63,671 nt of DNA, filler included, from Reclinomonas americana ATCC 50394 (GCA_048213135.1; 12 parts of 6 records of this genome joined end to end with filler, not necessarily neighbours in it); one strand, 5' to 3'. Positions 4,529-59,003 are shown, numbered from the whole stretch's first letter. Program-made: numbers and translations. Notes: generated by a model not told the origin, from the letters alone.

Positions 4529-7500
4529 ATGGATGTTGCGCGCTTATTATTTTTCCGTCATCTCTCTCTCCCCTCCCTCCCCCGCTCTCTCTGTCTCTTT
4601 ACGTTTGTCTGTCTCTCTCTCTCTCTCTGTCTCTCTGCCTGTGCAGTTTCTCCTCTTTTCTCTCTTGTGTCGTCTCCTTGACTTTCTCTCCCTCCCTTCC
4701 CTGCCTCCTTCACTCACTCACCCACACACTCACAGGAGGACTTCACCATCCACATCACCACTCAATGCCCACACTACGCCCCCTCCGTCTCACTGCACAC
4801 ACTGCACGCGCACTCTCCACTCTCCAACCTGATCAAGGCCGCTACAGCCGCTCTGCGTGAGAGCTCTGGCGATGCTGTCTTGCGCGTGGTGGCCATTCGA
4901 CGCCCATTGCAGTTTGCGCATTGGGAGATGGAGGAGGTGCCACTGGTGGGACTTGGCATTGGCAATGGAACGACAATGGAACTCAGTGTGGCGTCTGAGT
5001 TGCGGTCATGTCTCTGTCTCTGTCCCTCTCTCTCTCTCTCATTCTTTCTCTCTCTCCGATCCCATTGTGGCCAGTTTCCTGCAGCTCTGCCTCTTTGCCT
5101 GGCTTCATGCTGTCCCCCCACCCTCCTTTCCATCCTCCCTCCTCCCTGCTCCGTTGTTTGCCTTCTCTCTCTCTCTCTGTCCATTCTTGGAATCTAGCTC
5201 CGTCTCCCCTCTCTCCTGTGATGTTTCCGGCGCTTTCTCGCATCCTTTCTCTCCCTTCGTCTCCTTGTCTCTCTCCACTCCAGCGCTTCGCCTGTCACTC
5301 TTCCAGTTTTCTTCCCTCATGCTGTGTTCTCCCACGATGATCCTTCTCCCTCATTCTCTTCGCCTGTCTCTCTTCATGTTTCCTGGTCTGCGGATGTGCT
5401 CTTTGACTTTCACTTTGTCAGTCACCACACTGTTGTGTATCCTGCCTTCTCCTTCTCTCTCCCCGCTCAGTCTACATCGTCCTCCATTCATACTTGCAGT
5501 CGTCAGAGTCTCTCTTTCACCTTCTCCCGTCCCGTTGCTCTCTGAACTTGTGCTCAAAAACCTCCCTCTTGATCTCCGTCTGCTCCTTCCTGCTGTCTGT
5601 CTCTACCTCTCTCTCTTGTCTTCTTTCTGCCTTCGCTGTCTCTCATAATTGTGCTCCTTTGCTCTTCCTGCATCCTCACTTTTTCTCTTCCACCCTCCCC
5701 TTCTGATCCCCCCACAGCAAGGACTTTGATATCCCACCAGAGTCAGAGCGCATCACCACCTTCGACAGTGGTCTGTCTTTTCAAGCGCGTCCCCCTCCAT
5801 TAACGCTCACCTTCCCACGCTCACCATTGCCCCCTCGCCCACAGTGACCTCACTCATGGAAGAAATCACACGAGTGTTGGAACTGCCGCGCGGAGATGAG
5901 GTCGAGCGCGCCGTCTGGGCCATTAACGATTCACTGCATGCACGTTGCGTCGCTCATGGACCCGGAGCCTCCTCCCTCCGTCCCACTCTCATGACACATG
6001 TGCGCATGCAGACCGCCATTTGTGCCGCCCGTTTGTACAGCAAGGCGGCACTGCTGGCTTGCTGGACTTGCTGCGCTCCAATGTCGGACACAGCCAGTCA
6101 ACTGTGCTCGCGCTGTGTTGTACCCTCCGCAAAGTGGTGTGCGGTGAGCATGGTCGCCCGGTTGTTGTCTTCGCGTGTTATGTGGGCTGCTATTCATCCG
6201 GTCTTTCCTCAGAGGACGACGATATGGAGGAAGACAAGGCTGCTGATGATCTTCGCGAGGCATTTGTGGAGGCCGGTGGATTGTCTGTGCTGGCACAGGT
6301 GCTGCGGAACCATGGCGGCAATCCGATGGTCGTGTGCTGGGCGTTTGATGTGATTCGACTGTGTTGTCGTGGTGCGTGGGCTGAGCAGACTGGTCTTTTC
6401 ATCGCATCTGCCGTTATCTGTCGACTGTCTGTGCCCTGTCTCCCTGTCTCTCTGCGTCTCTGCGTTTCTGTCGTCTGCTTCGTCACTCTCTCACGTTCTG
6501 ACTCGCTGACTCTGTCTCTCTTTTTGCTACCTCTCTTGGCTTTCTCCCAATCTCTTTCTCTCCCTCACCTGTGTGTCTCCCGTAATGTCTCTCTTGTTTG
6601 GCCTCACTCACTTTCTGTGTCTCTCCTCTCGCTTTGTCCTTTATGACACCTATGTCGCTGTTACCCGATTTTCTCGCCCTCTCTCTCGTCTACTGTTCCT
6701 ATTCCCACCTTCTGCGTGTGTCTCCTCTCTTTGCAAGTTGCCGTGTGTCGCTTTGTCAGCTTCTTCTCTGCTCTCTCTCCCTCCACTTCCCCCTCCACCC
6801 TTTCCCCTCTTTCCCCTCTTTCCCCTCTTTCCCCTCTTTCCCCTCTTTCCCCCTCTCACTCTGCCCTCAGCTGAGACCGCGGGGATCGCATGCTGCGAAA
6901 ACGGACTGCTTTCCGTGGTGGTCGACTGCGCTCGCCAGCATTCCATGTTGACAACCGTAGTCTCTATGGCCAACTGGGCCATGTACAACGCCAGTGCGTA
7001 CACTCTTTTTTTCTCCCTCCCCTGCGTTCGGCCTTTTGTTTTCTCACGCTCGCGCACACCAGTTTTCCATGACGCCGGGCCGGCAGCGTTTCGTGCGGCG
7101 GGCGGTGTGGAACTGATTGTAGATCTCGTTCGCCAGCACGCCGACAGTGACGATACAATTAACGAGCTGTTTGACCTGCTTACGTTGATCTTGGATGGTG
7201 AGCTTGCTGTTTCGTTACTTTTGTCTCGCTCCGCCTCTCACTCCATATGGCCCGCAGGCTCCGTCGAAAACAAGAAGGCCTTTGTTGCCGCCAACGGCAT
7301 CGACATGCTGGCCGAGATTCTCTACGCGCACATGGCGGACTTCAGCGTCACAAGGCACACTCTGCGCCTGTTGTGGCTATTCCTTCCCGCAGGTTCTGTA
7401 GGGGGGCGAGGAAGAGGGAGGAGAGGAAAGAGTGAGACAGAGGGAAAGGGAAGTGACTGAAAGTGGGAGAGAATGGCGACAAGAAAGTTGATGAAAGAGA

Positions 7501-8148
7501 GGAAGATGAGGGAGAAGAGCAACGAGAAGAGACAGAGATAGAGCCCCCATGCTTGTCGCGTATCATCTCACACGGTGCACAGACGATCCGGAGGACACTG
7601 CGCACGCCTCCGCGCTCTTTGCCGTTGTAGATGGCATGGACCTCCTGGTCGAGGCACTGAAGGACCATTCCGACAGGAAATTATTCATCGCGCGGGCCTC
7701 GGAAGTGGTGTGCGCATGCCTTGAGCGTTTCGTATATTTCCCGTGTGTTTCCGTCCACTACAGTCACCCTCTCACTCGTCCGTGTGCACAGATGGCCCGA
7801 CAGCCGAGAATGCGAGCAGGTTTCTTGTGCTGGGCGGCTTGTCCTTACTGCTTGACTTGCTGAAGAAGCACCATGAGGACTCCAAGGCAGTGGAGCACAT
7901 TATTGCTGCCATTCAGCCGCTTTGCAAGGGTTCGTGCGTGGTGGAGGGAATGCTTGTCGTGTTTCAGTGCCGTCGCTCACCACGCGTACAGAGGCCGAAG
8001 TGTGCGAGGAGCTGATTGATGCAGGAGGTGCGCAGCTGTTTGTCGAGATGCTGCGGGAGCACATTGACAACAAGGATGTCGTACGAAACACGCTACGTAC
8101 CCTCAACAAGTCCAATAGCGGTGTGTGCTCTAGTGCGTGTGTGTGCTC

Positions 8149-8216
<68 letters not shown>

Positions 8217-8236
8217 NNNNNNNNNNNNNNNNNNNN

Positions 8237-8286
<50 letters not shown>

Positions 8287-10306
8287 TGTGTTAGCAAGCT
8301 GCCAGTACCGATGAATGCTCATCGTCTGATCAGGATCCGGAACAGGCGAAATCAAGGAGCATTACGTTCAATGTGGTATCATTGATGCGGCTGTCCAGGT
8401 GATCAAGCAGCACCCGGACGAGGCTCTCATTGTCGAATACGCGTGTGGAGCGCTGTGGAACTTTCTCAGTTGCGAGAAGGGAGAGGGTGACGGGGAAGTG
8501 GTTTTCTCTCTGAGTTGCTTCATTCTCCCTTGATGCGTGCTGTTCTGCGAATCTCTTGTTTGTGGCCGAGTGCTTGTGTCTTTGCGCATCTTGAGTATCT
8601 CGACGCCATTCAGGGTTGTCGTCTGTTTGTTTAATTTCCCACGGCAGAGTCACCAATTCTTAGCTATAGTGTTTGTGTGCTCCTGGTTGCTCTGCTTCCT
8701 TCCCCTCCTATCTGTGTTTTTCGGCACGGAGGAAGAGAAACAGGAAAGAAGTCCGAATGCCTGAAGGGGCGTGAGTGATGGAGGAAGACGCACAATCGGT
8801 GATTTGCAAACAGAAGTAGAAAGAAGCGAAGAGTGATTGTGGGCAGAGGACAACCGAACCCATTCAGAGCACTACGCGCAGGACTCTTTATCTCTCTCCT
8901 TCCCTCTCACCCCTCCTCAACACTCTCTCCTCGGGCAGACCGCGGGCAGCCGCAGGTGCGATTCGCCGACTCGGGCGGCTACGAGCTGCTGGCACAGGTC
9001 ATTCGCCAACACTCGGCAAACTCAAAAGTAGTCCAGACCGCGTTTGGCGCCCTCCGCCGCGCCATTGCTGGTGAGCTTCCTCCTTTCCTTTCATGATTTG
9101 GCGATGCCGGCTCACTCTTTCCCTGTCGCACAGATTCTGGCGATTTGAAACAGCGCTTTGGTGTCGCTGGTGGCATGCAACAGATTGTCGACGTGCTGCA
9201 GATGCACATGGACGACTGGCGCATCGTCGACAAGGTGCTGCCGGTGGCGCGCATTGCTGCAACAGGTGTGTGTGGGAGTGGAACGCGCTTCATGTGTCAA
9301 TCTTTCTCCCACTCACTGTCTCTCTCTTCACCGCAGGTGAAAACAAGAGATACTTTCGCGATGCCGGCGGTCTGCAGCTGGCCGTGGAGTGCCTACGGCG
9401 GCACATCAACGAGGCCTGTACGGTGGTGAAGGAGGCCAGCAATCTCATTGGAGAATTGTGCCAAGGTATGCAGCCCGTTTGTCCTTCCTGCTCCTTCCGT
9501 GTTGATCATGAGTGGCGCCACAGAGGATGAGAGTCGTGCGCCCGTCTTGGCGGCCGGTGGAGCAGAGCTGTTGCTGCAGGCGCTCCGCCTGCATGTGGCC
9601 TCGGAGAAGGCGGCCGGAAGTGTATGCGCCGCCTTGGTGATGGTGATTTGTGGTGCGTGGGCGCGGGGGAGGAACTCTGCCGGTCTATTTATTCCGGTCT
9701 TCTCACTTGGCCTTTGCAGATGAACCACAACACGAGCAGCAGTTTGTGGCGGGCGGCGGGGTGGAAATTGTGCTGGACGTGATTCGGGAGCATTCGCAGG
9801 ATCCGCGATTGGTCGGGTCGGCAGTGGCGTTGCTGACTACGGTGGTGAAGGGTGAGGCAATGAGGGAGTGAGGGAGGAAGGGAGTGTGTGTTTGTTGACT
9901 AGTCACGTGTGGATGCGCAGATGGCTCGGAGGGTCTGCAGCGATTTGCGGCCGCGCAGGGAGCCGACGTGATGATGATGAAGGTGGTGATGAACCCGATA
10001 CACTTTATGGTGGAGGGCGCAGCGAACCACCTGATGCGCCTGGCGATGCTGTCGTTGCTGACGGCGGCAAAGGCGCAAGTGGAGGCAAGAAGCAGGCGCC
10101 GGGGCAGCGACGACGACGACGGCGATGACGATGTCGACGTCGATGACGACGGCGCTGGTGACGATAGCGGCAGCGACGATGACGATGGTGGTGCGAAGAG
10201 TCGCAGTGCCGCTCGTCGTCGGCAGTTGGCGCGGCGCAAGAAGACGACTCGGCGGGTGCGCAAGCAGAGTAAGGGAGGGGGAGGGAGAGGTGATGGGTAT
10301 GATTGA
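4529..10306 (+). CDS. UBL-ARM paralog 1: ubiquitin-like domain plus about 15 armadillo repeats and an acidic/basic tail
   Basis: Micro-exon ATG GAT at 4529-4534. Exon 4736-4998 ends EEVPLVGLGIGNGTTMELSV, which is Ubl-like. Phase-1 exons follow, each encoding an ARM repeat (FVEAGGLSVLAQVLRNH, FRDAGGLQLAVECLRRH). Stop at 10306. Confidence 0.8.
8151..8290. repeat. Intronic (GT)n microsatellite interrupted by a short N gap
   Basis: Direct observation. Confidence 0.95.
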
Positions 10307-11005
10307 GCGCAAGAAGGCTGCCGTCAAAACTGGTGTTGGAGTTGGCCATCTGGTTGGTGCATGATCATGACTTGTCGACAGTTTTACTTGTTGAAGGATA
10401 GCATACTAGATTGCTGGCGATCACTGACAGCGAGCGAAACATGCACACCACTGATTCACCAACAACACGACAAGCTCTCATTTTTTCAACCTCACCACCA
10501 GTGACTGCTTTGCCGACTTGGCTTTGTTTGCCTGGCTTATGGCCTTTTCCCGAATTCGATGTGCCGTGTGTACGATCGCAGAAAACGCTGTGCGTCTATG
10601 CAAGTGCGTCAAAGCCACTGGTCAACCACGCTTATGCGGTGAAGATCGCAGTTCTCGACTTGTTCGGAGCTCCGAGAGCGAACACACACACACAAGGAAC
10701 CTGCTGCTGCCTCAAGATTGGTGTCTGTGTTGATGCTTTGGATACGGTTGAACTTGGTCATCAAGACAGCTGTTGCGTGCTTCTACGCGTGGCGAAGAAG
10801 ACAACGCGTGCGTTCGAATTCTGACGTTGCATGCATGATATCGATCAAAGTCCTCGCAACGCCAGTGATCAAATGCAAGGGCACAGAGATCGCATAATCC
10901 AGCATACGCTGCGAGACAAACAGGACCCACAGATTGCAAACAAGGCATAGCAAGCTGCAATGTTGTCCCTTCGTCGTCCCCTGTGTTGTCCAATCATCCG
11001 TCCTC

Positions 11006-13267
11006 ATGGCTGTTGCGCACACACCTCTCCCTCCACTTCACCCACCCACTCACTCACCCACTCACTCACTCACTCACCACAGGACGACGAGCACGCCACC
11101 ATCCTCGTCGACTGCACCTCACAACTGCGCGCAGAGCTCCCCGCAATCCCACTGCACACTCGTCTCTCCGCAGTCGCCGAAGCCGCCATAGGCGCACTCC
11201 TCCTCCTCCAACAACAGCATTTGCAGAGAGAAGACAACAGTCGTCGATTTGTGATTGTGCGACTGGTGACGGCGTTGAGTGAGGTGGTGATCGATGTGAG
11301 CGGCGATGAGAGAACGCTGCGGGAGATTGGTGTGAGTCATGGCAGTGTGTGTTTGATGGAGGCGAGGGTGGAGGGTGACGAGGTGGAGGAGGAGTTGCGT
11401 GGGAGAGGGAGAGGGAGGGGGAAAGGGATGAATGGGGAAGGGTGATAGAGAGGGAGAGAGAGACTGAGAGAGATTGTCTGTGTGTGTGTGTGAGTGTGTG
11501 AGAGAGAGAGAGAGAGAAAAAGAGAGAGCGTGTGTGTGTGAGAGAGGGGAGAGATGCGGAAGAATGCAGAGTTATTCAGAGTTCGGTTTCCTTCGCCCTT
11601 CCCTTCTCTTTCTCACACACACACACACACTCTCTCTGTCTGTCTGTCTCTCTCTCCGTCCTTCCTTCAAAACGTATACTCTTCATGCACATGAGGCAAT
11701 CTCTTCTCACGCCTCGCTTGGTTGTCTCCTGNNNNNNNNNNNNNNNNNNNNNNNNNNNNNNNNNNNNNNNNNNNNNNNNNNNNNNNNNNNNNNNNNNNNN
11801 NNNNNNNNNNNNNNNNNNNNNNNNNNNNNNNNNNNNNNNNNNNNNNNNNNNNNNNNNNNNNNNNNNNNNNNNNNNNNNNNNNNNNNNNNNNNNNNNNNNN
11901 NNNNNNNNNNNNNNNNNNNNNNNNNNNNNNNNNNNNNNNNNNNNNNNNNNNNNNNNNNNNNNNNNNNNNNNNNNNNNNNNNNNNNNNNNNNNNNNNNNNN
12001 NNNNNNNNNNNNNNNNNNNNNNNNNNNNNNNNNNNNNNNNNNNNNNNNNNNNNNNNNNNNNNNNNNNNNNNNNNNNNNNNNNNNNNNNNNNNNNNNNNNN
12101 NNNNNNNNNNNNNNNNNNNNNNNNNNNNNNNNNNNNNNNNNNNNNNNNNNNNNNNNNNNNNNNNNNNNNNNNNNNNNNNNNNNNNNNNNNNNNNNNNNNN
12201 NNNNNNNNNNNNNNNNNNNNNNNNNNNNNNNNNNNNNNNNNNNNNNNNNNNNNNNNNNNNNNNNNNNNNNNNNNNNNNNNNNNNNNNNNNNNNNNNNNNN
12301 NNNNNNNNNNNNNNNNNNNNNNNNNNNNNNNNNNNNNNNNNNNNNNNNNNNNNNNNNNNNNNNNNNNNNNNNNNNNNNNNNNNNNNNNNNNNNNNNNNNN
12401 NNNNNNNNNNNNNNNNNNNNNNNNNNNNNNNNNNNNNNNNNNNNNNNNNNNNNNNNNNNNNNNNNNNNNNNNNNNNNNNNNNNNNNNNNNNNNNNNNNNT
12501 CTCTCTCTTTCTCCTCCTCCTTCTCCCTCTCATCATCCCTTCACGCAGAGCTCCCGTCGACCCCTCCGCCGCATCCTCTTCAGCCGCCGCCGCTGTCGCC
12601 GCCGACGTACCAGGTATCATCAGCCTCCGCCCTTTCCCCATCCCCCCATCTCTTTTCCTCGCCTCACTCTGCCCGCGCACCCAGTGGAAGTCGACCCCGC
12701 CGTGCAACACGTAATCGATGAGCTGGTGCGCGCCGACACGCTGGACGCGACCGTCGACGCCGATGAGCTCGAACGCATTGGCAACGCAGCGCGCGATTTC
12801 TTGTTGGAGCGTTGCGTCACACCTGTCACGACGTGCTCGACATTTGCCCTCCTCTCTCATGATGAGGAGCAGACCCTTCACTGCGTGTTCAAGCGAGCTC
12901 CGTCAATTCGATTGCCCTGCTGGTTGGACTTGTGCGCAAGCATGTCGAGCATCCCAAGCTGGCGACGGCGTTTTGCTCGGCCCTGCGTTACGCAGTGTAT
13001 GGTACGCGTCGACTGGCGGATAATGCGAATTGTCTGTCCCTTCCCCTTATACGCGCACGCACATGCAGTTCAGGAAGAATGGGATGACGACAAGCAGTAT
13101 TCGGGACTGCGTGACAAGTATGCCGCGGCGCACGGGAATGAGCTGATGGCCGATTTGCTGCGACGATACGGCAGCGATGCTGCCATGGTGGAGCTGGTCG
13201 CGAATGCTGTGCGCTATGGAACTCGAGGTTCTCTCTCAGCGTAGTGCTCCTCCTCGGCAATCGATCT

Positions 13268-13300
<33 letters not shown>

Positions 13301-27105: not shown

Positions 27106-27144
<39 letters not shown>

Positions 27145-42300: not shown

Positions 42301-43023
42301 GGTTGTTGTTGTTGTTGTTGTTGAGATAATAATAATAGTTGTAGAGGTTGTGTTGGCGCGCCGAGTGTGTTGAAAGTGTTGAGATTGCATGCACGTGACA
42401 GCATTCATCACGTTCGGTTGCCGGATTTGACGGGAATCGTCGAGATCGTGTCGAAGGCTGTTTTTGGTCAAGCGCGGGATATTTTCGACAGCGACTGGAG
42501 ATGGTGGCACACATGGGTAAGTGCAAGGCAAGCCGTCCGGCAGGCCTGCTGCTGTGATCGCGATTGCATTCGCTGCGCAGTGAATCGCGCTCGACTTCGA
42601 CGTCCAGATCTAGATCTGGATCCGTGACCAAAGAACGTCACCGTCGGCCGCACATACTTCCCTGCGATTGTGCTGTCGACAGAGAGTTGGAATGCATCTT
42701 GTGTCGTGAAACGCGCGACTTGCTTGGCAACTTCTGAGTCTCGACGTTGATTTCAAGCGGTCGCAATTCCTTCGCAATATTTCTCACCCTCGTACACACC
42801 TTTGCACACCCCGCTCACGCCCCACACTTGCAGGCGCACGCGCATCGCCGCCGCAGCCCGAAGTCACTCGCACAATGCAAATTCGTTCAAAAAAGTCCTG
42901 CAAACCGTTGCGCGGCCGGCCTANNNNNNNNNNNNNNNNNNNNNNNNNNNNNNNNNNNNNNNNNNNNTTAATTAATTAANNNNNNNNNNNNNNNNNNNNN
43001 NNNNNNNNNNNNNNNNNNNNNNN

Positions 43024-43894
43024 CGAGATGATGTGCTGGCCAGCCTGGAAAATGTGCTCGCCTCGGAGGAGTCGGAAGAGCAGACAAAGGAACAGCTGGC
43101 GGAGGCACTGAAGGAGCTCGAAACCGTCAAGGCCACCGCAGCTGCATACAAGAGTCTCGTTCAAAGCGTTCCACTTTGCCGCGTTTCCCCTCCCTCACTG
43201 ACGTGTGCCTCTGCAGAGCAACTGGATGCGGCTGCTGCCGCTGGATCGCCAGCAGGAAGCAGCAAGCCTGGCGAGAAAGCGCGTGTTGCTGGCACCAATC
43301 GGTCGCCAAGCTCATCCTCGTCTTCCTCGTCGTCCTCCATCGAGAGCCGCAGTTGCGCCTGCGTGTGTCAATATTTCGTCTTTGAATAACGGTGGCTCAC
43401 ACCACGCTTTTCACAGAGGCCGAAAGTCGCGTTCGTGCCCTGGAGGAGCAGACCGCCAACTTGGCGGCCGAGATTGCCGAACTACGCAGTTGCGCACGAC
43501 CGCTTACACCGTCGTCGCGTCTCTCTGGCTCACTGCGTTGTTATTCTCCCCTCGGCGCAGAGGCCAAGGAGGCTGCCGACCAGCGAGCTCGCTCGGCGGA
43601 GGCGGCACTGGAGGCCGCTCGCGACGAGACAGCCAAGGTGGAGACACCGGTGAAGGATCGCCAGCGCGAGGAGCTGGCCAGACAAGTGGAGCAGCTGTCG
43701 TCGCAACTCAGCGACTTGACGAGTTTCGTAAGAGAGAAGCGTCTTGTCGCAGACGTTGTGTCTCATGTTTCCACTGCAGAGGAACGCGACGAAATGGAGA
43801 GCGACCTCAGTGTGCTGCAGGACACGATTGAGAAGACCAAGGCCATGAATGAGAGTTGCGCCACTTGCAGTTCTCCCTCGTTGTTCGTGCGCTC

Positions 43895-43930
<36 letters not shown>

Positions 43931-46900
43931 ATCACGTAGAGGACAAGGTCAGGTTGACAGCAGCCGTCAAGACCGAGACCGACCGCGCCACGCAGTTGGA
44001 GGCCGATAACACCAGTTGCGTGTGCGCCAGCATGACACACTGTCAATCGTCGACAACTGTTTCTCACCAACAATCTGCGTTCCTCACAGAGTTGCGTGAC
44101 AACGTTGCGTCGTTGACGACTCAACTCGAGGCGTTGCGAGAGGAAGCAGCCAGTTGCGTGCACCACGATTGTGCACCCGTTCAACACGAGGCATCCACTG
44201 ACTTGCATATTGTGTGCAGAAAAGGACCAGTCGCTGCGTGCGGCCTCGGCCGAGCACTCGGAATTGGAGCAGCTGCAGGGTCTGTCAGCTCGTTTCGATT
44301 TTGTCGTGTACGTCAAGCAGCTCACGTGTGATCCTTGCAGAGGAAAAGTCGCGCCTGCAGTCCCGTCTGCAGTCACTCGAGGTGGCTCACGAGGAGGCAC
44401 AGAACGAGTTGGCGGCTGCCCAAGGTTCTCACTGCGCACTGTTCATTGTTTGCCTCTCCTTCTCTCAACTTGAGCCACGCAGAATTCAAGGGTGCACTGG
44501 CGAGCGAGCTGGAGGAGGCCATCGCCACTAGCGTGCAACTGGAAGCCGACAATGCCGTTCTCAAGGTCCAACTGGAGAACGCCGAGAACGAGAGCCGCAG
44601 CCGCCACGAGGCCTTGCAGAGTTGCTTCCAGCCACCCACTTGCGCACCCTCCCTCTTTTTTCACTAACTCTGCGTGTGTTTTTGCGTCGCACAGGAGACT
44701 TGGAGGCCGGCAAGAGCAGACTGGCCGACGCCGAGCGTGCTGCCGCAGAGAAGCTCGAATCCGCGCACCGTGAGGTTTGTTGCTCACACGCGCACAGTTG
44801 TGTCTCTCACACACGCATGCATTCCTCAACTCGTACGGTGCGCAGCGTGCCGCCGTGGAGCAGCAAAAGGCCGCCAACGAGGCGCAATTGCACGATGGTG
44901 AGAGTTTGTTGTCTCCATTGTTCCCTGGCCCCGTTGTCAATCCTCACCCCTTGTGAAAACAGCCAAGACGCGCATCGAGCAGCTGTCGTCGGAGAACGCG
45001 AATCTCGGCCAGCGAGTGACCGAAGCCCAGCAAGCACGTGCGCAAGTGGAGCAGCAACTGGCAGCCGCCCAGCAGAGCCTTGCCGAGAGTCGCCAGCGAG
45101 AGGCCGTGCTGTCCAAGCAGGTCAGCGAGTGGGAGCAGCGTTGCAAGGATGCCGAGGCCCGTGGTGCGTCGGCCGCGGCCACCATCCAGCAGCTGCAGGC
45201 GCAGTTGCAGCAGGCCGAGGCACAGCTGAAGGCCCAGATTGCCGACCTGCAGACGCGTCTTGGTGCTGCCGAGTCGCGCGGTGAGAAGCTGTCTACCCGC
45301 CTCGGTGGTTTGCGCAAGTCCATGCAGGTGCGTGTGCACGAGATTGCCACTTCTCTCTTTGGCTGTTCACCTCTCACGGCACACATTTGTTGCAGGCGGC
45401 CGCCGATGTCGCACAGCGTGAGTCGCGGCGCGTCAAGGCCGAACTCGTGCAACTGCGCACCTATGTCGGTGACAAGATGCGCACCAGCCTTGACGACATG
45501 TTGCGTGAGACCGCCGAGTCCGTGCTCAGCCGGTGCGGTGAGCTGGTCGAGGAGTACCGAGTGCGCTACCGCGACGAGTGGGTGCTTCGTCGCAAACTCT
45601 TCAACTTGGTGCAAGAGCTGCGTGGCAACATCCGCGTGTTCTGTCGTGTGCGCCCGCTGCTGTCGGACGAGGTGGCGGCTCGCGTCGAAGAGTGCTTCAC
45701 ATTCCCGGCCGAGGGCGAATGCGTGCTCAGCGATCCGCGTCGCGGTCGCTCCAGTCGCTTCGAGTTCGACACGGTCTTTGGTCCTGCATCCACGCAGGAG
45801 GAGGTGTTTGCCATGGTGGAGCCACTCGTGACCTCGGTGCTCGACGGCTACAACGTGTGCATCTTTGCGTATGGTGCGCCCACTTGTCCTGCCTGCACCA
45901 CTCCCTTCTTGCTCACTCACTCATCTCCAACGTATCAGGTCAAACTGGCTCCGGTAAGACGTACACCATGGAGGGCACGCCGTCGAATCAGGGTATTTCC
46001 TACCGCACGGTGCACGAGCTGTTCAAGGTGGTGGAGGCGCGCAAGCCCGACCTGAACTACGTGTTGGAGGTGTCGGTGTACGAGATCTACATGGAGCAGA
46101 TCTTTGACCTGCTGGTGGCCCCGGTGCCGCCTGGTCGCGGTGGTCGCCCGCCGGCCAATGCTCCGCGCCGCGACAAGTTGCGTCACGTCGCGCCAAGCAA
46201 AGGCTCCACAAGAATAGACGCTGACTGTATCCCTCTCTTTTCCCTTCAGGCTTGACGTGCGGCTCGGTGGCAAGGACGGCGTGTACGTGGAGGGCATGAC
46301 GCGCCGCGAGGTGCGCACACTCGACGAAGTGCTGTCGACTCTCGCCGAGGGACACTCGAATCGCTCGGTGGCCGAGACCAAGGCCAACGAGCACTCGTCT
46401 CGCTCGCACCTGCTGCTGTCGATTTACGTCAATGGCGGCAACCACGTGACGGGTGAGACGGTGCGCGGCAAGCTGCACCTGGTCGATCTGGCCGGCTCGG
46501 AGCGCATTTCGCAGACTAACGCCACTGGCGATCGTCTGGAGGAGGCTAAGAGCATCAACAAGAGTCTATCGGCACTGGGCGACACGATTCAGGCGCTCAT
46601 CAACAAGAGCCGTGCCACGGCAGCTGCGGGTGGTGACTCGACGGCCGCCGCCGGCGGCCACGTGCCCTACCGCAACTCCAAGCTGACCTTTTTGCTGCAC
46701 GACTCGCTGGGTGGCAACGCCAAGACGGTTATGATTGTGAACGCCAGTCCGACGCTCGAGGACTCGGCCGAGTCGCTCTCCTCGCTGCAGTTCGCCTCGC
46801 GCGTGCGCAAGGTCGAGCTCGGCAAGGCCAAGAAGAACGTCATGAAGGGCTCCGCGTCCACTCCGATCCTGGAGGATCTGCCGATTGGCGGAGCCAGCGG

Positions 46901-47043: not shown

Positions 47044-48386
47044 ATGGCAGACAGAGAAGTGCGTGACACAGTATGGGAGGGCCACATTCCGGTGGAGTTC
47101 TCACTCGCGGGGCGTGAGCTCACCACCATGGACGTGCCTCCACGCGTCTTTGTTGCGGACATGTCGTCGTCTCTCACAGGAAAACACCTTCTGACAACAC
47201 ACATGCACAGAGGATGGTGCCCCGCACAGCCTACATGCCCATGTTGGCCGAGGAGCTGCTGGAGATCTTTGAGCGGTTCACACTGCGCAGCTCACCAGCG
47301 TGGTTTGACGTCGACTTTATCCCCCTCAAATGGTGCGCAGATTGATCACACACACACCCTCACTCTCTCTCTGTTGCTCTCACACTCACTCATCCTCGTA
47401 CACAGGCAACTTCCGGTCGGTGTCTTGTTCGACTGTCACGCAACAACGTCGCTGCTGCAAGGTGGGGGCGGAGGAGGCGAGGATGCTATCGATCGGCCGT
47501 GGCAGGTGACAGTACACTTCCAGAACTTTCCGCGCGACGAGCTCGTCGACATGCGCAGTGTCAAGCAGCCGACACCAGGCACAGCATCTCCGCCCGCCAC
47601 CTCCTCCTCTGCTGCGCCGAGTGCGAGTGAGCGAGCAAACTTGCATGCAGAGTCGATGGAGTGGTGCTTCTTCAACCTGCTCAAGGAGGTGAGGCAGAGA
47701 TAGAGGGAAGAGTGCGTGGAGGCGGAACGGGAAGAGTCACCACGACGCTGCTACAGAGCTTCCAGATGCGGTATCGATCGACAAGAGCGTTGCAGACGCT
47801 GTCCAAGCCCGACGAGACGCGTCTGTGGCAGGCCGTGCAGCAGAAGAACATGAGTGGGTACTTTGAGATTGTGGATCGCCTCTGCACCGAGGCCGACAAC
47901 CGTGCCAGTGCCGCCGACAAACAGTGGGCGTTTTTCCCGGTCAAGGCGGTCATCTTGTCGAGCACGGCGCGTGCGGATGGTCGTGGCGATATCAGGCTAC
48001 GAACTGTCGTGTGCCCTTACAGAGGTGCAGCCTGCAGCCTGCGTGCATTCGTGCACGACCTTTCTGGGTGTTCCCTCCATCGGCTGATCTGCGTACATGT
48101 GTGTGTGTGTGCAGCCGACTTGACGTTTGAGGAGTTTGCTCCGCTGGCGTGGGAGGTGCTGACGGAGGAGAGACCAGACCTGCGAGCCGTGGATGAGTCG
48201 GATGGTGTACCACTGGAACTGGCGCACGTGTTGCGTGTTGATTCACAACGTCACGCCTGGCAGCTGGTGGTGCACGGCGTGACGGTGGATCCCGACACGC
48301 CGCTCCGTTGGCTCTGCACCAACATGAGCAGCGCCGACGGCACGTTGTATGTCGTCGCACAACCGCGATCGCCTGTCGCCACCTGA
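47044..48386 (+). CDS. ATG5: Autophagy protein 5 (5 exons)
   Basis: VWEGHIPVEF, MVPRTAYMP, WFDVDFIPLKWQLPVGVLFD, PWQVTVHFQNFP, FFNLLKE (the ATG12-conjugation Lys region) and HGVTVDPDTPLRWLCTNMSSADGTLYVV. Confidence 0.93.
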
Positions 48387-48666: not shown

Positions 48667-51600
48667 ATGCAAGAGGATCCAGTGGGAGACGACACTGGGG
48701 GTGGCTCTGTGGGCTCAGGTCTCGGTGGGGGTGGATTGGGCGGTGGTGGCGGTGGTGGCGAAGCGCTGCTGGGTGGCTTCTCGCTGAGAGAGGTCGAGTC
48801 GTGGTGCGAGACGCTCTTCCAACATCACGACGACGATCGACGTGCGGAGGCCAGTGTGCGCCTGGCGCCTCTTGCACAGCCTGGAAAAGAGGCACTGTTG
48901 TCATTGCACGCCCTGTTGGATCGAAGTGCGGCGCCGTATGCGCAGTACTTTGCGGCGACCACGTTGCAGAGACTGGTCACTGCGCACTGGAACACACTGT
49001 CGACGCATGAGAGACTGGATCTGAGTTGCGTGGCCTTGCGTGCGTGTGTGTGTGAGAAAAAACGCGTGCAATGTCGTACTTGACACGCGCGCGCGCGAAC
49101 ACACAGCACGCCTGCTCTCTCTCTCTCTTTCTCCTCGTCTGTGTGTGGTGGTGTCGTACATGTGAGGCGTGCTGCGCTGTGAGCATCTGCGCAAGTTGTG
49201 CTTTCCGTACACATCGAGAGTTGTCCTCGTCGTCGTGGCTCTCAATCATCATCATCATCATCCAACGCGATCTTGTGTGTGTGTGTATGTGAATGCAGAG
49301 AACTACGTGGTGCAGTACTTGGCGCAACGCGGGCCGCATCTCGTGCAGTTCGTGGTCACCGCAGTCATCCTCCTGTTGTGCCGCATGGCCAAGGTGAGAG
49401 GCAGGCAGGCGCTCGAGTTGCATCACACATGTTTTCGTTGTGCAGTTCTGACTGTGTCGATGGTGATGATGGTGTGTGATAGTTTGGATGGAACGAGGCC
49501 GAGGAGTACAGGCAGCTGCCGGCGCAGATGAACGAGTTCATGGGTGTCTCGGTCGACCTCATGGTCATTGCGCTGCAGAGTTGCGCCGCAATTTGGGTAC
49601 TCTCATTCGCCCTCGCTCTTCCGCTCACCAGCCCATCTCGTCTCAGCGCTCTCCGAGCTTATTCGTGAGATGAACACGGTCAACACACGCCGAACGCTGA
49701 CGCAACATCGCAAGGTGGCCATCCACTTCCGTGACTCGGCACTGCTGCCGATCTTTGAGATGACGCTCGACACGCTGAAGCGCTGTGTGGCCGGCGTGCT
49801 GGGAGTGAACGGCGGTGCGTTTCACTCTCTTTGAAACACACATTCGCACGCACACGCACACCTCTGCCCGCTCACATGAATGGTGATTTTGTTGGGGGAC
49901 CAGACAAGGACGACCAAGTACGGGGAGCGGCGCTGGGACTGGCGCTGCAGTGTCTTTCGTTTGACTTTGTCGGCATCTTCCCGGACGACTCGTCGGAGGA
50001 CATTGGCACTGTGCAGATGCCGGTCACGTGGCGGCCCATCATTCAGGACCTATCGAATCTGCATCTGTTCTTCGACTTGTATCACACCTCGCGGCCGTCG
50101 CGCTGCCAACAAGCACTGCAGTGCGTGGTGCAACTGGCCAGCGTGCGACGCTCGCTATTCCAGACGGAGCCGGACCGCAAGAACTTCCTCAGCCAGCTGC
50201 TGCTGAAGACCAACCAGATCATGCAGAGCCGTGTTGGACTGGACGACGAGAACGTGTTTCACGAGCTGAGTCGTCTGCTGGCTCGCATCAAGGGCAACTT
50301 CCAATTGACTGGTTAGCACTGTCGTGCACTACCCCGCTGTCCGTGCCTTCCCAGTTGTGCCACGCATTGACTCTCCTCGCTCTGTCTCTCTGCAGAAATC
50401 GTCAGCACCGACGAGTACGATCAGTGGGCCAGCCTTGCGGCCGATCTCACCATCGAGTCGTTCCGCTCGTGGCAGTGGGGCGCCAACGCCGACTACTACT
50501 TGATGAACTTCTGGAGTCGCATGGTGGCCACGCTACCGTACCTGAAGGGCCAAAAGCCATCCATGCTTGATACATATGTGCCGGAGGTGGCGATGCTCGT
50601 TTTTCAGTCGTCTCCGTCATTGATGCACAACCTCACTCGTGCCGTCGTCGCACAGATTGTCAAAGCGTACGTGGAGTCACGATTGGACATGGCCCGCGCC
50701 GTGTGTCACGACGACCAGTTTGACAACATTTTGCGCGAGGAGGAGCGCCTGCTGACCCAGTTGGATGGCTTCCCGCAGCTTGTCCGCACGTTCTACGACA
50801 AGATTGCTCCGTACCTGGCCATGATCATGGATCCGCTGATTGAGAATTACTCGCGGGCCGTGCTCATGCTCCAGCAGGGCGACTTGTCGGTGGTGCCGGA
50901 CACGGAGATTTTCGAATCGCAGCTGGCGTGGATGGTGTGTGTGTGTGCACCCTGCACAAACAATGACTTGTGTGCATTCGCACTTGCTCACATGCTGCTG
51001 GTTTTGTTTTTATTGCGCAGGTGTACTTGGTGGGCTGTGTGATTGGCCACCGTCTGTCGGCGGCCACGTCGGAAGCGCTGGACCTGTATGACGGCGAGCT
51101 GGCCTCTCGTGTGATGCAATGCACACAGATTGTGCAGGCCCGCATTGAGTTTTGCGCGCAAATGGTTCGCTGATTGCATATGCGCGCGCGTGCCCGCATG
51201 GTTGACTAACGTGGTCTCTGACGGCAGACCGAGCGTGTGAACACGGAGCCGCTGGAGATGCTCGAGTGTGGATTCGTGTACTTTTTCCAGCAGTTCCGCC
51301 GCGTTTACATTGGCGAGCAAGCCATGACGTCGTCCAAGGTGTGCCTTTTTTGTGGCACGCGCGCGTGTTGCAGCTGTACCGCAGTTCTCACGCTTCATGT
51401 ACAGGTGTACTCCAAGCTGACGGAGTTGTTGGACCTGCAAGATCACCTGGCCGTTCTCAACATCATTGTCACCAAGCTGGCCAGCAACCTTAAGGTGTGG
51501 GCCGACAAAGACCGCATCATCAAGAACACGCTGGCACTGCTGCACGATCTGTCTATTGGCTACAGCAGCGGCAAGCTGTTGCTGAAGCTCGACGCCGTCC

Positions 51601-53170
51601 AATTCATGATCCAGAACCATGCAGTTGTGTCTCCAAGAGCCCCCTGACTGCTGCTGTTTCTTCCCCTCACGGTGTGCTGACTTCTTCTTTCTCCTCCTCC
51701 TCCTCCTCCTCCTCCTCCCTCGCACACAGAACGAAGCGCTTGGCTTTGTCAGCAGCGTGCGCAACATGAAGTATCGCATGACGTTCTACGCGGCCCTCAC
51801 CAAGCTGCTGGTCACCGAGCCGGATGCGGAGAACAAGTTCCAGGCCTTCCTGCAACCGCTACACGACGCCTCCATGGAGCTCCAGGACGCGCTGGCCAAT
51901 GGCAACCACATGGATCCGGCCGTGCGCATGGCGCTGGTGGGCTGGATGCGCGACACGCGAGGTGTGCTGTCGGCACTGCTCAACCGCCGCAACTACAACA
52001 TGTTTTTCGAGTGGATCTATCCGCAACACATGCCACTGCTGGAGGGTGCGGTGGAGCTGTGCTGCGATTCGGTGGAGGTCAGCATTGCACTGCTGAAGCT
52101 GCTGTCGGAGCTGGTGCACAATCGCTCCGACCGCATCCTCTTTGATTCGTCGTCGCCGAACGGCATCCTCCTGTTCAAGCACACCAGCAAGATCCTGGTC
52201 ACGTACGGCGACCGCACCTCCCGCCTGGCAGTCTACCAAGACGCCTACAAGGAGAAGTACCGAGGCATCTGTGCCTGCTTGGCCACCCTGTCGCGCTCGC
52301 TCAACGGCAACTACTGCAATTTTGGCGTCTTCCAGTTGTACAATGATCCGGCTCTGGTGGATGCACTGCACGTGTGCATTACGCTGGCGCTCTCGATTCC
52401 GCTGAATGATTTGATGGTGTGTGTGCTTGCGGGCGCTACGTGCAGTGCGTCTGGTTGACTGACTGCGCGCGGGATACAGTCGTACCCGAAAGTCTGCAAG
52501 GCCTACTTCCACGTGCTACAGACGCTGTTCCACAAGTACATGAACATCGTGGTCATGTTCGACACCAACATGTTCCTGCAGCTGCTGCAGTCGATTGAGG
52601 TGAGTGCGGCTGCTCTGCTGCCGTGTCGCGTGTGACTGCTGCTCACGTATTAAAAAAACAACGAGCAGGAGGGCATTCAGAGCATCGACACGAGTATCTC
52701 CAGCCAGAGCTGTGTGGCGCTCGACCACGTGGTCACCTTCTTCTGGAAGGAGAGCCTGAAGGGCAGCGAATACTTCCAGAAGATGCAGGCGCACCTGTCC
52801 ATGCAGCCGGATCTGATGCCGCGCATGCTGGCTGTGTTGCTCAACATGATTCTGTACGAGGAGAGCAACAACCAGTGGTCCCTGTCACGGCCGTTGCTCA
52901 CCCTCATTGTCACCTACACCGAGGTTGGTTGCGCGCCTTTAGTATCTTGGCAGTGTGCATTGGAAACAAATACTCATATCGTTGCTGCAGGACTTTGATC
53001 GTCTGAAGGCCGAGGTGGCGGCGACGCTGGATGGTGAGCGGCAAAATCTGCTCATGCAGGCGTTTGATACGCTGATGGACAAGGTGTTGCCGAACTTGGA
53101 CCCGAGAAACCGCGACGTGTTTACGCAAAACATGACCTTCTTCCGAACAACAGTCAAGGGCTTCTTGTAG
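48667..53170 (+). CDS. XPO7: Exportin-7 / RanBP16-17 family nuclear transport receptor
   Basis: PYAQYFAA, LTQHRKVAIHFRD, CLSFDFVGIFPDDSSEDIGTVQMPVTWR, QLASVRRSLF, FFQQFRRVYIGEQ, FDSSSPNGILLF, YCNFGVFQLYND, NQWSLSRPLL and RNRDVFTQN. All introns are GT-AG and in frame. Confidence 0.95.
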
Positions 53171-53527: not shown

Positions 53528-53558
<31 letters not shown>

Positions 53559-54277: not shown

Positions 54278-56248
54278 CTACACCAGACGAAGACGTGTAA
54301 GCCAANNNNNNNNNNNNNNNNNNNNNNNNNNNNNNNNNNNNNNNNNNNNTTAATTAATTAANNNNNNNNNNNNNNNNNNNNNNNNNNNNNNNNNNNNNNN
54401 NNNNNGCACTACTGACGCAGCCACAGAAAGAGCCACTCACGCACACAAACAAGTTGACACGACGGCCATGTGCAGTGCCATGTGCGCGCGCCCAACCCAC
54501 CGCGCACACAACACACGCACACCACCGCCTGCTCAGCCCACTCGCACACACACGCACACCACCACGCATCGACGCACAGAGAGCAAGGCGCGGGGCAGCG
54601 CAGTTGCACGGACATTTCGCCAGACGCGCGAAACACACACTGTAGAGCCTCCCCTCTTTCTTCGTCCACAATATGTCACTGCTCACACACACACTGCTCT
54701 CACACACAGAGAAGACTCTTTGCCCTCTCTCTCTCTCTCGCACACACAGCGGTGTGCACACCAGCTGACTGCATACTGCTGTGCGCATCGTATGATCAGT
54801 CACGCGCGTCGACAGACAACACGGACAACACCCCTCACATCGCGATCAAAGTGCCCACTCTCTGACTCGTCCTCACACGCACACACACACACACAGAGGC
54901 GTGCGCTGAGTGAGAGAGCAAACGGTCCATCATTGACGATTTCCTCTCATTTCGAGCAGACTGCTGAAATTCATCATGCACACAGCGACCGTGCGTGTGT
55001 GTGTGTGCGTGCGTGTGTGTGTGGGAAATGCCCAACCTCGCACTCACCGCACAGCGCGCGACTCTAATAAACAATCCAGCGGGTGTAAGGTGGAAGGCGG
55101 ATGGGGGTGCACACACAACCAGCAGAAAAAAACGTGTGCGTGTGTGTGGGTTGGAAGGGAGGAGGGATATACGAAAAAAATCAAGCGCGCGCGCTTGTGT
55201 GCGTGAGAGAGAAAGAGAGAGAGAGGAGGGTTGAGGGTGGGGTAGGCGAAACCGGGAAAAGGGAAAAGAGACACTGAGTGGCGAAGGGGGTGAGGAGCGA
55301 CACACTCACTCACACACACGAAGTGAGGTACGTTACACATATGACTCATCGCTGGCGATTTTTCCCCGCGCAAAATCGTACTTTGTTTTTTGTGTCGGTT
55401 TCCTTGCACATCTCAGCTGGAGCTGTGGAGGTGGACGTGTATCGCGAGACGAGCAGGTGGGCGATTCACCAAGGAGAAAACAAATAAACAACACCCACTG
55501 TGTAAAGACAAGAAACTGATCTCGAAATCTGCGCGATCTCGTCCCTTGCAANNNNNNNNNNNNNNNNNNNNNNNNNNNNNNNNNNNNNNNNNNNNNNNNN
55601 NNNNNNNNNNNNNNNNNNNNNNNNNNNNNNNNNNNNNNNNNNNNNNNNNNNNNNNNNNNNNNNNNNNNNNNNNNNNNNNNNNNNNNNNNNNNNNNNNNNN
55701 NNNNNNNNNNNNNNNNNNNNNNNNNNNNNNNNNNNNNNNNNNNNNNNNNNNNNNNNNNNNNNNNNNNNNNNNNNNNNNNNNNNNNNNNNNNNNNNNNNNN
55801 NNNNNNNNNNNNNNNNNNNNNNNNNNNNNNNNNNNNNNNNNNNNNNNNNNNNNNNNNNNNNNNNNNNNNNNNNNNNNNNNNNNNNNNNNNNNNNNNNNNN
55901 NNNNNNNNNNNNNNNNNNNNNNNNNNNNNNNNNNNNNNNNNNNNNNNNNNNNNNNNNNNNNNNNNNNNNNNNNNNNNNNNNNNNNNNNNNNNNNNNNNNN
56001 NNNNNNNNNNNNNNNNNNNNNNNNNNNNNNNNNNNNNNNNNNNNNNNNNNNNNNNNNNNNNNNNNNNNNNNNNNNNNNNNNNNNNNNNNNNNNNNNNNNN
56101 NNNNNNNNNNNNNNNNNNNNNNNNNNNNNNNNNNNNNNNNNNNNNNNNNNNNNNNNNNNNNNNNNNNNNNNNNNNNNNNNNNNNNNNNNNNNNNNNNNNN
56201 NNNNNNNNNNNNNNNNNNNNNNNNNNNNNNNNNNNNNNNNNNNNNNNN

Positions 56249-59003
56249 CCCGAACGTGCCTTGGTCGCCATGAGGCTCGCTCTCTGCCTCTCCCGAAGAT
56301 CACGCTCCGTGGGCACACCCGACAGCTGCAACACTCGCTCCTCTAATGCCTCCACGCGCGCAGTCAACAGGTTGATGGTGCGCACGCTGTTGGATAGGAG
56401 CTCATTCACATTGACCTCGAACTGGCGTTGTGACTGCGGCAGCGGGATTTCAGCACAAGAAGGCAGATTGAAAACGAAACACACACGCACAAACACACAC
56501 CTCAGCCATGCGTGTCACTTGCGAGACGATCTCCTCCAGTCGCTTCTCTAATCGCTCCGAGCGAATATCACTCACAGTGGGCGATCGAGCAGTGTCTTGT
56601 CCGCCCTCGTCGGTGGCCGTGATTTCCAGTGTGGCCAGCTGCTGCTGTCGTTGCTGTTGCTGTTGCTGCTGTTGCTGCAGCTGCTCAATGGCGCGCTTGC
56701 GAGCGGCGGACACTGCCTCCACCGACGGCACTCGGACAACGCGAGGGGCTTCGGCGGCACGCTTGGCGATCCGACGAGCCGAGATTCGCACGGCATCGAC
56801 GCTGCTCAGAATCGGTGTACCCGACAGACCCAGCACCACGCTCCGCGTGGCACCGTTGCCGCGGGGACTGTGGTTGCCGTTGGCAGCTGTCGGCGAATCG
56901 CGATCACTGCTGGGCGAGGTGTAGGTCGTCGAGCTGCTGGGTGAGTGGCCTCGTATCCTCATCACTTGTGGCTGGAACTTGGTCGCCTCGCTGGCCCGCG
57001 GCGACAACCGATGCGTCACAGAAGCGGCTGGAGGCGACTCAAGGTGCAGCGCTGGTAGCAGTGGCGAGACGGCAGCAGAAGCAGTACCATTCGACGACGA
57101 CGCCGATCCGACGCGAACCACCAGCGGACCACCGCCAGCACCACCACCGTCGGTCGGTGCCACGGCTTCACCTTCGCTGTCGGCTGCAGGTTACGAATAC
57201 AATTCGTTCAGTCAATCACCATGCAACGTAACCAGGAGAGCGCAGGCGGCGGCACGCGCAACTGTCTCCATTGGCATCAAACAACTCATTGTCGCCGTCG
57301 CTTCCGTCATCATCGTCGTCCTCAATGATACCAGCTGCGATTCGATCCTCGCGCGACATGAGCGGCGGCGGTGATCGAGCACTGGCGGCAGCCGAAGCGG
57401 ACGAAGCAGGTGATCCCGTGTCGGTGCGCGACGAAGGCGGCACACGCTTTGGCGAGCGTGGTGGTTTGGGAGATGGCCGATTCAGCGCGCGATCGACAGG
57501 CGACGGACACACCGACTCGAATGTCGACAGCGCCTCTTCGGCTTCCTCGCGCACCGGGCGCATCTTGTCGCGTTTGGCCACCGCCAGTGTGCCAATGGCC
57601 TCCGAGCGCAACGCAGTGGCCTGTGCCACCACCGTAGGCGGCACTGGGAAATTACCGTGAACCTCCACTCGTCGTTCGCGCCGAGCTGCACCATCGACGT
57701 TAGACAACAAGAGCAAGGAGACAGTGCTCGGCGATGAGCAGTGGTGACGCAACCGGCTCCACGAGGCGACGCCAACTCCTCAATGTCGGCCACACCTCGC
57801 ATCGGCGGCGCCAGATGGCGCGACGTCATGCCCAGGAAGCGAACGGCGGCCCGCCGTGATGTCCAACTGATGGACTTGCGCACCTCGGCCGACGCCAGCG
57901 AGATCCACTGCGTTGTCAACGCACACACACACACGTGCACACACACAAAAGTAAGTCGCACTGCGTCGCGACGGTGCACTACGTGATCAACCATGCACAC
58001 CTGCTGCAAATGCTGGAAAAACGGGTCGCGCCACGCGACAACGAGACCGTCTTGCTCGGCCACATGCAAGTGAGCGAGGGCGGCCTCAGAAAGAGCACGC
58101 GCGCTCTCAAAGAAGGGCGACTTGGTTTCGCCAGGTCGCATGGACTTGAGCAGCAGGCCAGACACCACCGAGAGAATCGAATAACGGGTGACGGCGTCGC
58201 TGTCGTCGGGATCGACTTCCTCATTGGTCTTCGAGTGGCGCAGCAGCAGTGACTTGCCGGCCGTGAACATGCGACCCATGCACATGGCTGCACTCAGACC
58301 CGTGCTCTCTCGCAACTGACTGCTGCGCATCAACTCCAGTAGCGATTCGACCAGCGACAGCAGCGGAATCGTGTTGTTCTCCACACAACAGTGATACACC
58401 ACGCGCTCGGCAGCATCCGCGCAGGCCATCTTCACCTCGCGTTCTGCATCCTTCATGCGCTCCTTCAGCAGGCGGAACAGGCGCTGCACGTGACCAATCG
58501 CCAGGTGCGCCCCGTATCGCTGACAGATCTCGCCGGCAATCTACAACGCACACGTCGTCAATCAACACTCTTTCAACTCGACTCACTCGCTCCCCTCTCA
58601 ACGCACCATCGCACACGACTGGCGGAACCACAGCGTCCCGCCTCCACCCATCAGATCCGACACTGCACCCGTGCCGCTTCCACCGCCTCCACCCGCACCT
58701 CCACTCAATCCGTGCCCACCCATGGCCGACACCAACGACGACAACGCCGACACACCACCTCCACTGTTGCCGAACTTGATCTCCGACGACAGCTGCTCCG
58801 CCAGCGCGTGTAACCGTCGCGGAAACATGTCATCGTCCTCGGGCCCTGATATGATAATGTATGTCAAAAAGTGTGTGAGCTTCGCATCGGATGGGAGCGG
58901 GCCCTGCTTGCGACAAACCTGCTTGTGCGAGAAGAGCACGTAGTTCACTGCGCCCGCGCTCCACAGTGTCTCGATTGTCGCACAGCAAAAGTGCCTTGGC
59001 CAC
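56249..59003 (-). CDS. TORTIFOLIA1/SPIRAL2-like HEAT (TOG-like) protein with a disordered linker, poly-Q and a coiled coil; both ends in gaps
   Basis: LLCDNRDTVERGRSEL, LKERMKDAEREVKMACADA, SAAMCMGRM, WTSRRAAVRFL, KRDKMRPVREEAEEAL and SVRTINLLTARVEALEERV occur in the same order as remembered TOR1/SPR2 motifs. Confidence 0.75.

Follow-up and report, generated by a model that had tools for sequence, protein, structure and literature searches.

A common second class of 5' splice site, A/GTTGCG, in a window of Reclinomonas americana DNA and its possible recognition by U1 in a shifted register

A class of 5' splice site (donor) at which the intron starts with GTTGCG was analysed in a window of 63,671 nucleotides from Reclinomonas americana ATCC 50394 (GCA_048213135.1). 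The window is the whole stretch of DNA that was analysed; this single 64-kb sample is eukaryotic draft sequence with 5375 N, gaps and many short introns. As judged from the DNA, GTTGCG after A, written A/GTTGCG with the slash at the exon–intron boundary, is confirmed as a real and unusually common second type of 5' splice site, found at about one in five to one in ten introns. The fuller reading, in which A/GTTGCG(Y) forms a true and frequent second donor class with U1 in the +1 shifted register as the most likely mechanism, is held with about even confidence. Shifted and bulged U1 registers are already known for a minor fraction of human sites, and the new point would be a donor class of one word at about 10–20% of introns. 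Among the top-ranked matches of a literature search that covered few subscription journals, none described donors of the GTTGCG class or a genome with such sites as a mainstream type.

Use of the GTTGCG word as a donor

The GTTGCG word occurs 60 times on both strands of the window, compared with 47.9 ± 6.9 expected, and at least 60 copies were obtained in 6 of 100 shuffles. The count is unremarkable, and thus any signal lies in where the copies sit. The initial annotation had listed 22 introns with this start. All of the 19 plus-strand coordinates carry GTTGCG, and the three minus-strand cases, placed near 32744, 57263 and 57754, correspond to the copies at 32737–32742, 57257–57262 and 57748–57753. 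Immediately upstream of the 22 listed copies, A is found 15 times, T three times, C three times and G once. A precedes 15/22 listed copies versus 9/38 remaining copies (Fisher p = 0.001).

Gene models were built by a self-training gene finder with a 3-periodic coding Markov model, an intron Markov model and an acceptor matrix. The sole donor rule was GT/GC..AG, with no donor motif. Intron starts were part of the training data of the intron model, and the gene finder is slightly biased as a result. Introns for which a donor swap costs at least 3 nats were regarded as high-confidence (n = 49). Each of the 2686 sense-strand GT sites in the gene spans was also forced to be a donor, and sites with a cost of 3 nats or less were regarded as near-optimal.

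In these donor-blind models, GTTGCG is the top donor hexamer (11/84 and 11/105 introns), and it starts 10 of the 49 high-confidence introns. The earlier estimate of roughly a fifth of introns is therefore reproduced in the high-confidence set, whereas the share is about one in ten in the full set of 105. GTTGCG accounts for 11/84 used donors versus 17/2446 unused sense-strand GT sites (odds ratio 21.5, p = 4e-10). In the forced-donor scan it ranks first, with 15/29 copies near-optimal versus 192/2686 (7.1%) overall (p = 1.2e-10), followed by GTGCGT (15/47) and GTTTGT (9/26). Eleven of the 22 listed introns are in the blind optimum and five are within 3 nats of it. The other six are weaker by the model; the one at 47152 among them is confirmed by Pfam.

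The use of the word depends on the base at -1. Among the high-confidence introns, G at -1 is found in 1/10 GTTGCG donors versus 32/39 other donors (p = 4.7e-5), and A in 6/10 versus 2/39. According to the forced-donor scan, GTTGCG is near-optimal after A in 11/15 copies, after C in 2/5, after G in 1/2 and after T in 1/7. The corresponding values are 3/8, 1/8, 11/20 and 0/11 for GTGCGT, and 1/4, 0/8, 6/6 and 2/8 for GTTTGT. The proposed rule that GTTGCG follows non-G exon ends holds more sharply than claimed, with A favoured, and the true motif is really A/GTTGCG. The rule is one-way, as had been stated: GTGCGT is near-optimal after non-G in 4/27 copies versus 11/20 after G.

These results bear on the possibility that no special register exists, in which case GTTGCG would be one well-tolerated hexamer among degenerate GTnnnn donors, and bias of codons or context would account for the -1 pattern. 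The donor repertoire is wide: 87 distinct GT hexamers lie in frame with predicted donors at distances of up to 30 bases, T is found at +3 in about a third of normal donors, and several of the GTTGCG cases lie in one gene. However, GTTGCG is the single most enriched hexamer, and its dependence on -1 (A 11/15 versus T 1/7) runs in the direction opposite to that of other common donors (GTTTGT after G 6/6, GTGCGT after G 11/20). The two sides of a donor usually compensate for each other, whereas GTTGCG pairs weakly on both the exon and the intron side. This explanation is thus considered improbable. In a test of whether GTTGCG itself tends to lie in frame with, and at most 30 bases from, another predicted donor, 3/133 cases were counted, which is not significant (p = 0.089).

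Junctions fixed by homologous proteins

Homology junctions were determined using a protein-to-genome aligner restricted to GT/GC..AG with a linear gap cost. In the case of XPO7, a profile of 34 homologs was used, and the transcript-derived relative P0001 served for spliced alignment. The P0001 alignment gives 13 introns, all GT-AG. Two donors are GTTGCG (after tga and aga), one is GTTGTG (after gca), and the other ten follow G. The three sites are located on the plus strand at intron 1 (tga/GTTGCGTG, 49025–49298, phase 1), intron 3 (aga/GTTGCGCC, 49580–49646, phase 1) and intron 10 (variant donor gca/GTTGTGTC, 51624–51729). Introns 1 and 3 are also in the blind optimum. The junction scores are 63.4 versus 56.0 for the runner-up candidate at intron 1 and 70.6 versus 64.3 at intron 3 by the profile, and 219.1 versus 213.5 at intron 10. 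At intron 3 the junction residue Thr suits the Ile/Val/Leu of the homologs better than the Arg given by a one-base shift.

The glutaminase (GLS) intron at 38650–38714 (+; aga/GTTGCGCA, phase 2) is exact by homology and within 3 nats of the optimum. The exons around it align to residues 263–309 and 311–360 of 5w2j_A, a solved human chain. One residue is left between the two alignments, corresponding to the split codon, and likewise in 5jyo_D and 3czd_A. In the case of ATG5, intron 1 is located at 47152–47210 (+; ttt/GTTGCGGA, phase 0) according to Pfam PF20638, although the blind model scores it at -10.3 nats. Residues 10–34 of exon 1 correspond to profile positions 1–25, residues 2–40 of exon 2 to 29–71, and the third exon to 73–97. 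By extrapolation of these matches, exons 1 and 2 appear to be contiguous across 47152–47210. The word-based homolog search for ATG5 was empty, and the short exons matched no ATG5 chain in the PDB. The annotated occurrence of the class in conserved genes is thus exact at the junctions of XPO7, glutaminase and ATG5; the kinesin site at 46177 is ambiguous by homology, as described below. Top rank in the donor-blind models and four exact homology junctions together uphold GTTGCG as a frequent class of GT-AG donor.

The same junctions bear on a reading in which cleavage occurs one base later, AG/TTGCG...AGN/, giving non-GT introns with a shifted acceptor. At XPO7 intron 1 this reading would give Arg, as in 24/25 aligned homologs, where the GT-AG reading gives Lys, and the glutaminase mRNA is identical under both readings. 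However, the four verified introns would then have A, C, G and A as their last bases and so lack a consensus, whereas under the GT-AG reading every one ends in YAG. Later cleavage would also give Arg at XPO7 intron 3, where the homologs have Ile/Val/Leu, and Asp at intron 10, where the closest homolog P0001 has Asn. Later cleavage is therefore very unlikely, and from the sequences the GT-AG reading appears near certain by comparison.

The possibility of an artefact, namely that introns were traced wrongly or that the gapped draft assembly contains sequencing errors, is raised by the 5375 N and by the weak support of 6/22 sites. Such an origin is hardly credible in view of the four exact homology junctions and the donor-blind p values of 1e-10, and a dropped G would break frames that homology confirms.

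Apart from the donor, the class-2 (GTTGCG) introns resemble the others. The median length is 70 for class-2 and 69 for normal introns, and the base composition is G 0.186 and C 0.339 for class-2 and G 0.224 and C 0.299 for normal introns. Branch-like motifs are alike in both, and no class-specific 3' or branch motif was found. In an all-against-all blastn comparison of 18 class-2 introns, no more than 17 bases are shared and no E-value is below 0.03 (30 of the 137 hit lines); in these lines the only common stretches are the first 10–11 bases. Removal of GT-AG introns restores both the frame and a homologous protein in XPO7, glutaminase and ATG5, as for U2-type introns. A family of introners or transposon-derived introns was rejected because, in these 30 hit lines, the copies have no similarity beyond the splice signals. 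U12-type donors read RTATCCTT and are accompanied by a strict branch box. The class resembles them in that a second donor word of high specificity exists alongside the main type, but its word is GTTGCG, it has no special branch or 3' feature, and its length and composition are as in other introns; the U12 type was thus rejected as well. With shared length, composition and branch-like motifs and no copy similarity, the introns are neither mobile-intron copies nor a minor-spliceosome class. By their sequences they are classed as ordinary U2-type GT-AG introns of the same spliceosome, alike apart from the donor.

The performance of the gene finder was examined on the known junctions. It reproduces 9–13 of the 13 XPO7 introns exactly, depending on the intron penalty and settings, and all 13 at a low intron penalty. 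Addition of a single donor matrix gave no gain in known junctions at the usual penalties. Two kinesin introns were fused, and ATG5 exon 1 was not called. In XPO7, several introns are multiples of three (50587–50655, 51339–51404, 52417–52479 and 52600–52668, all plus strand). Those at 50587–50655 and 51339–51404 have no in-frame stop and can be read through silently, and therefore are easily missed by a frame-based tracer or a gene finder.

Pairing with U1

The alignment proposed in the initial annotation is well founded: AGTTGCGY lines up with AGGTGCGY, and the +1 G of the intron sits at the position of the exonic -1 G. G/GTGCGY is among the commonest canonical donors in the window. A at -1 in 15/22 listed sites mirrors A at -2 in 15/33 normal donors, and +7 is T or C in the class, as is the normal +6. 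GCG is found at +4 to +6 in 9/11 donors with non-G at -1 and T at +3, versus 4/33 at +3 to +5 of normal donors with G at -1 (p = 2.5e-7); the latter also show GAG (7) and TTG (5).

In the mechanism that we favour, AGTTGCGY would be the AG/GTGCGY donor of this lineage with T replacing the first intronic G. As a result of this replacement, the only GT sits one base upstream. U1 or a U1-like RNA would pair with the 8-mer where it pairs on the normal site, that is, in the +1 register relative to cleavage, and A at -1 would act as the A at -2 does in normal donors. The GU would be chosen afterwards by the catalytic core, and cleavage would occur one base upstream of the position implied by the register.

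Pairing was calculated using the 5' end of human U1 as printed in PMC4856993, which may differ from the U1 of this organism. With this U1, register +1 gives the most base pairs at 17/22 listed sites, and register 0 at 31/39 other high-confidence donors. Calculated with the register fixed, the energy of the consensus amounts to -0.8 kcal/mol in register +1 and +4.8 kcal/mol in register 0. The suggestion of a +1 register is thus supported by the best register at 17/22 sites and by the mirrored A, and is weakened by poor pairing and by a donor family that is not mirrored.

Several points weigh against this mechanism. Pairing to standard U1 is weak in any register, with -0.8 kcal/mol in register +1 compared with -7.4 kcal/mol for G/GTGCGT. 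A one-base shift of the whole normal donor family would give a much broader class than the one observed, as the GCG counts above indicate (9/11 versus 4/33). Standard U1 should pair better with GTTGAG than with GTTGCG, yet GTTGAG is near-optimal in 0/5 copies. The Lys at XPO7 intron 1, where 24/25 aligned homologs have Arg, is a further difficulty, as are the donors that the gene finder misses or misplaces, including those of XPO7. Five or six of the cases come from the same coiled-coil region of a single gene, possibly by common descent. The evidence is limited to one 64-kb window, and the mechanism is read from DNA with human U1 as a stand-in.

The narrowness of the class leads to a second explanation, in which AGUUGCG is recognised by a dedicated reader (a variant U1, a U1 with a lineage-specific change at its 5' end, a protein, or a contact with U6), giving two donor codes for one spliceosome. 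It would fit GCG in 9/11 donors and the near absence of use of shifted forms of other common donors in the forced-donor scan (GTTGAG 0/5, GTTTTG 1/6, GTTGTG 1/19). It would also fit the weak pairing to standard U1: C at +5 cannot pair with standard U1, which should favour A over C there, and this leaves room for such a reader. On the other side, no new component is needed to account for the alignment with AG/GTGCGY if one U1 works in the shifted register. We regard a dedicated reader as possible and tentative. At a similarly tentative level, the genome might use two codes, the G/GTnnG family and a dedicated 7-mer A/GUUGCG with its own component, the latter at 10–20% of introns genome-wide including old housekeeping genes.

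In a third explanation, U1 pairs with +1/+2, one U at +2/+3 bulges out, and +4 to +7 pair like the normal +3 to +6. The G+1/U+2 pairs are then kept, and PMC4856993 includes bulges of one nucleotide at +2/+3 among the registers of human sites. The bulge (+2/+3) and asymmetric-loop registers in that paper concern donors that, like the sites here, have U at +3 and a G moved to +6. Unlike the sites here, these registers keep the pairing of G at -1. In a bulged register -1 would still pair with C9 of U1 and G would be favoured there, whereas G is found in 1/10 GTTGCG donors versus 32/39 others and A is enriched. The A at -1 therefore argues against a bulged U, which we consider quite improbable. 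The +1 shifted register remains the preferred mechanism.

The human sites with a +1 shifted register were reportedly described originally by Roca and Krainer in 2009. They resemble the sites here in that the GU is one base upstream of the position in the U1 duplex, with +1 G in place of -1 G and +3 U in place of +2 U. They differ in the core, which is AAG there and GCG here, and the class here is restricted to one word. According to the part of PMC4856993 used here, the shifted register is experimentally validated for some human sites, and the "Shifted +1" test oligo has the same architecture as the GTTGCG sites. In the same part, all noncanonical registers together are given as about 1.5–2.1% of human sites, unlike the one word at about 10–20% of introns here. 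A lineage-wide departure of donors is also described for the tunicate Fritillaria, in which an excerpt of PMC13326754 reports mass non-canonical splice sites and discusses a shifted U1 register as a possibility. In that excerpt the GT/AG ends are lost, whereas here GT-AG is kept and the flanks differ.

Individual sites, the window and implications

The kinesin gene encodes a C-terminal motor of the kinesin-14 type and carries several of the listed sites, all on the plus strand. The motor intron at 46177–46249 (caa/GTTGCGTC) is in the blind optimum with a ban cost of 4.3, and its acceptor has a pyrimidine tract and CAG. In spliced alignments, 10/12 kinesin homologs favour 46115–46217 instead, and this makes the site ambiguous by homology. 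The preference is probably an effect of the linear gap cost at lineage-specific loop insertions. The intron at 45874–45938 is confirmed by 12/12 homologs. A 45-base GC-AG "intron" at 46579–46623 (+), called by the aligner for 12/12 homologs, was rejected as a miscall and put down to the same gap cost; it is a 15-residue in-frame insertion in the motor relative to the 12 homologs.

In the coiled-coil part, the intron at 43489–43560 (gca/GTTGCGCA, phase 1) is in the blind optimum and its flanking exons form a stop-free coiled coil, and the intron at 43855–43939 (aga/GTTGCGCC, phase 1) is also in the optimum. The donor at 44015 (cca/GTTGCGTG, phase 1) is in the optimum, and the acceptor giving 44015–44089 assumes that the 63-base exon 44090–44152 is kept. 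Forcing of the next intron, 44153–44219 (cca/GTTGCGTG, phase 1), costs 2.5 nats, and the exon before it is coiled coil. The claimed intron at 43352–43416 (gca/GTTGCGCC) is weak, at -6.7 nats relative to the optimum, and its frame fits with 43154–43216. If the earlier kinesin model is right, 43154–43216 (+) has aaga/GTCTCG, another non-G donor with CG at +5/+6. A variant donor at 44621–44694 (aga/GTTGCTTC) is in the optimum with a ban cost of 8.8. The N-terminal coiled coil gave no consistent alignment to homologs. In this region, 43352–44962 (+), 9/10 introns are of phase 1 and the exons are 60–294 bases long. The pattern suggests exon duplication or shuffling, and therefore the five or six GTTGCG donors of the coiled coil may not be independent events.

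Among the other listed plus-strand sites, the introns at 5944–6011 (cac/GTTGCGTC) in an ARM-like gene and at 12811–12872 (agc/GTTGCGTC) are in the blind optimum, with ban costs of 5.4 and 6.8. The claimed intron at 4535–4837 (gat/GTTGCGCG) is also in the optimum and is weak, with a 6-base first exon ATGGAT and a weak acceptor. Forcing costs are low for 4999–5717 (tga/GTTGCGGT, 1.9 nats; the optimum is a GT six bases upstream), 8469–8938 (tca/GTTGCGAG, 0.9 nats; the optimum uses 8445) and 30232–30299 (tca/GTTGCGTG, 1.5 nats; the optimum uses 30223). The cost is 4.5 nats for the weak case at 29477–29585 (caa/GTTGCGGA). Two claimed introns are not supported, 11012–11082 (gct/GTTGCGCA, 9.7 nats), where no gene is called, and 11394–11460 (gga/GTTGCGTG, 16.6 nats). 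On the minus strand, the introns at 57184–57262 in a TORTIFOLIA-like gene (aca/GTTGCGCG, ban cost 5.2) and at 57686–57753 (ccg/GTTGCGTC, ban cost 3.2) are in the blind optimum, the latter being the sole case after G. The claimed donor at 32737–32742 (tac/GTTGCGCG) is weak: forcing costs 6.3 nats and the intron enters the gap at 32175. A further variant donor is found at 7727–7791 (+; agc/GTTTCGTA) in the blind optimum, with a ban cost of 6.6.

According to Pfam searches of stop-free segments, the window contains an ankyrin gene, ARM-repeat genes, glutaminase, the kinesin, ATG5, XPO7, the TORTIFOLIA-like gene and CCDC39. The nearest named homologs of the window proteins are from green algae and Chara, with 35–59% identity. 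A long series of exons of about 129–135 bases, often with the acceptor CAG/ATG, codes for ARM-like repeats at 8334–24209 (+); each exon seems to hold one ARM-like repeat, and the whole may be a single large gene or several. Within introns there are (CTG)n and (GTT)n microsatellites, and a (TG)n run reaches a gap (43855–43939, 38650–38714 and 26098–26313).

The Rfam scan of the window gave zero families at the gathering scores. At E ≤ 1 it gave no small nuclear RNA and just sub-threshold matches to microRNA-like hairpins. On both strands of 11494–11665 and 35–261, several plant microRNA-precursor models match below threshold (best 39.6 bits; gathering score 80), suggesting inverted repeats that are either long and hairpin-forming or of low complexity. 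The inverted-repeat region at 11494–11665 is directly 3' of the unsupported intron claimed at 11394. Eleven gaps have one pattern of 44 N, 12 bases and 44 N (17634–17733, 32075–32174, 34637–34736, 35869–35968, 37839–37938, 41045–41144, 42924–43023, 54306–54405, 59088–59187, 60755–60854 and 61978–62077), and these resemble masked linkers or marks left by scaffolding rather than gaps of measured size.

Among human splice sites, shifted U1 registers are known as an uncommon means of rescuing atypical ones. If one exact word of this kind serves a tenth to a fifth of the introns of an organism, gene finders with a single donor matrix would misplace many exon ends in this genome. Glutaminase is an example: the blind model placed the donor at 38665, 1.7 nats better than 38650, and it was set there with or without a donor matrix. 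The U1 and U6 genes of the lineage would be worth reading for co-evolved changes, and the lineage would be a natural system for the uncoupling of U1 binding from the choice of the cleaved bond.

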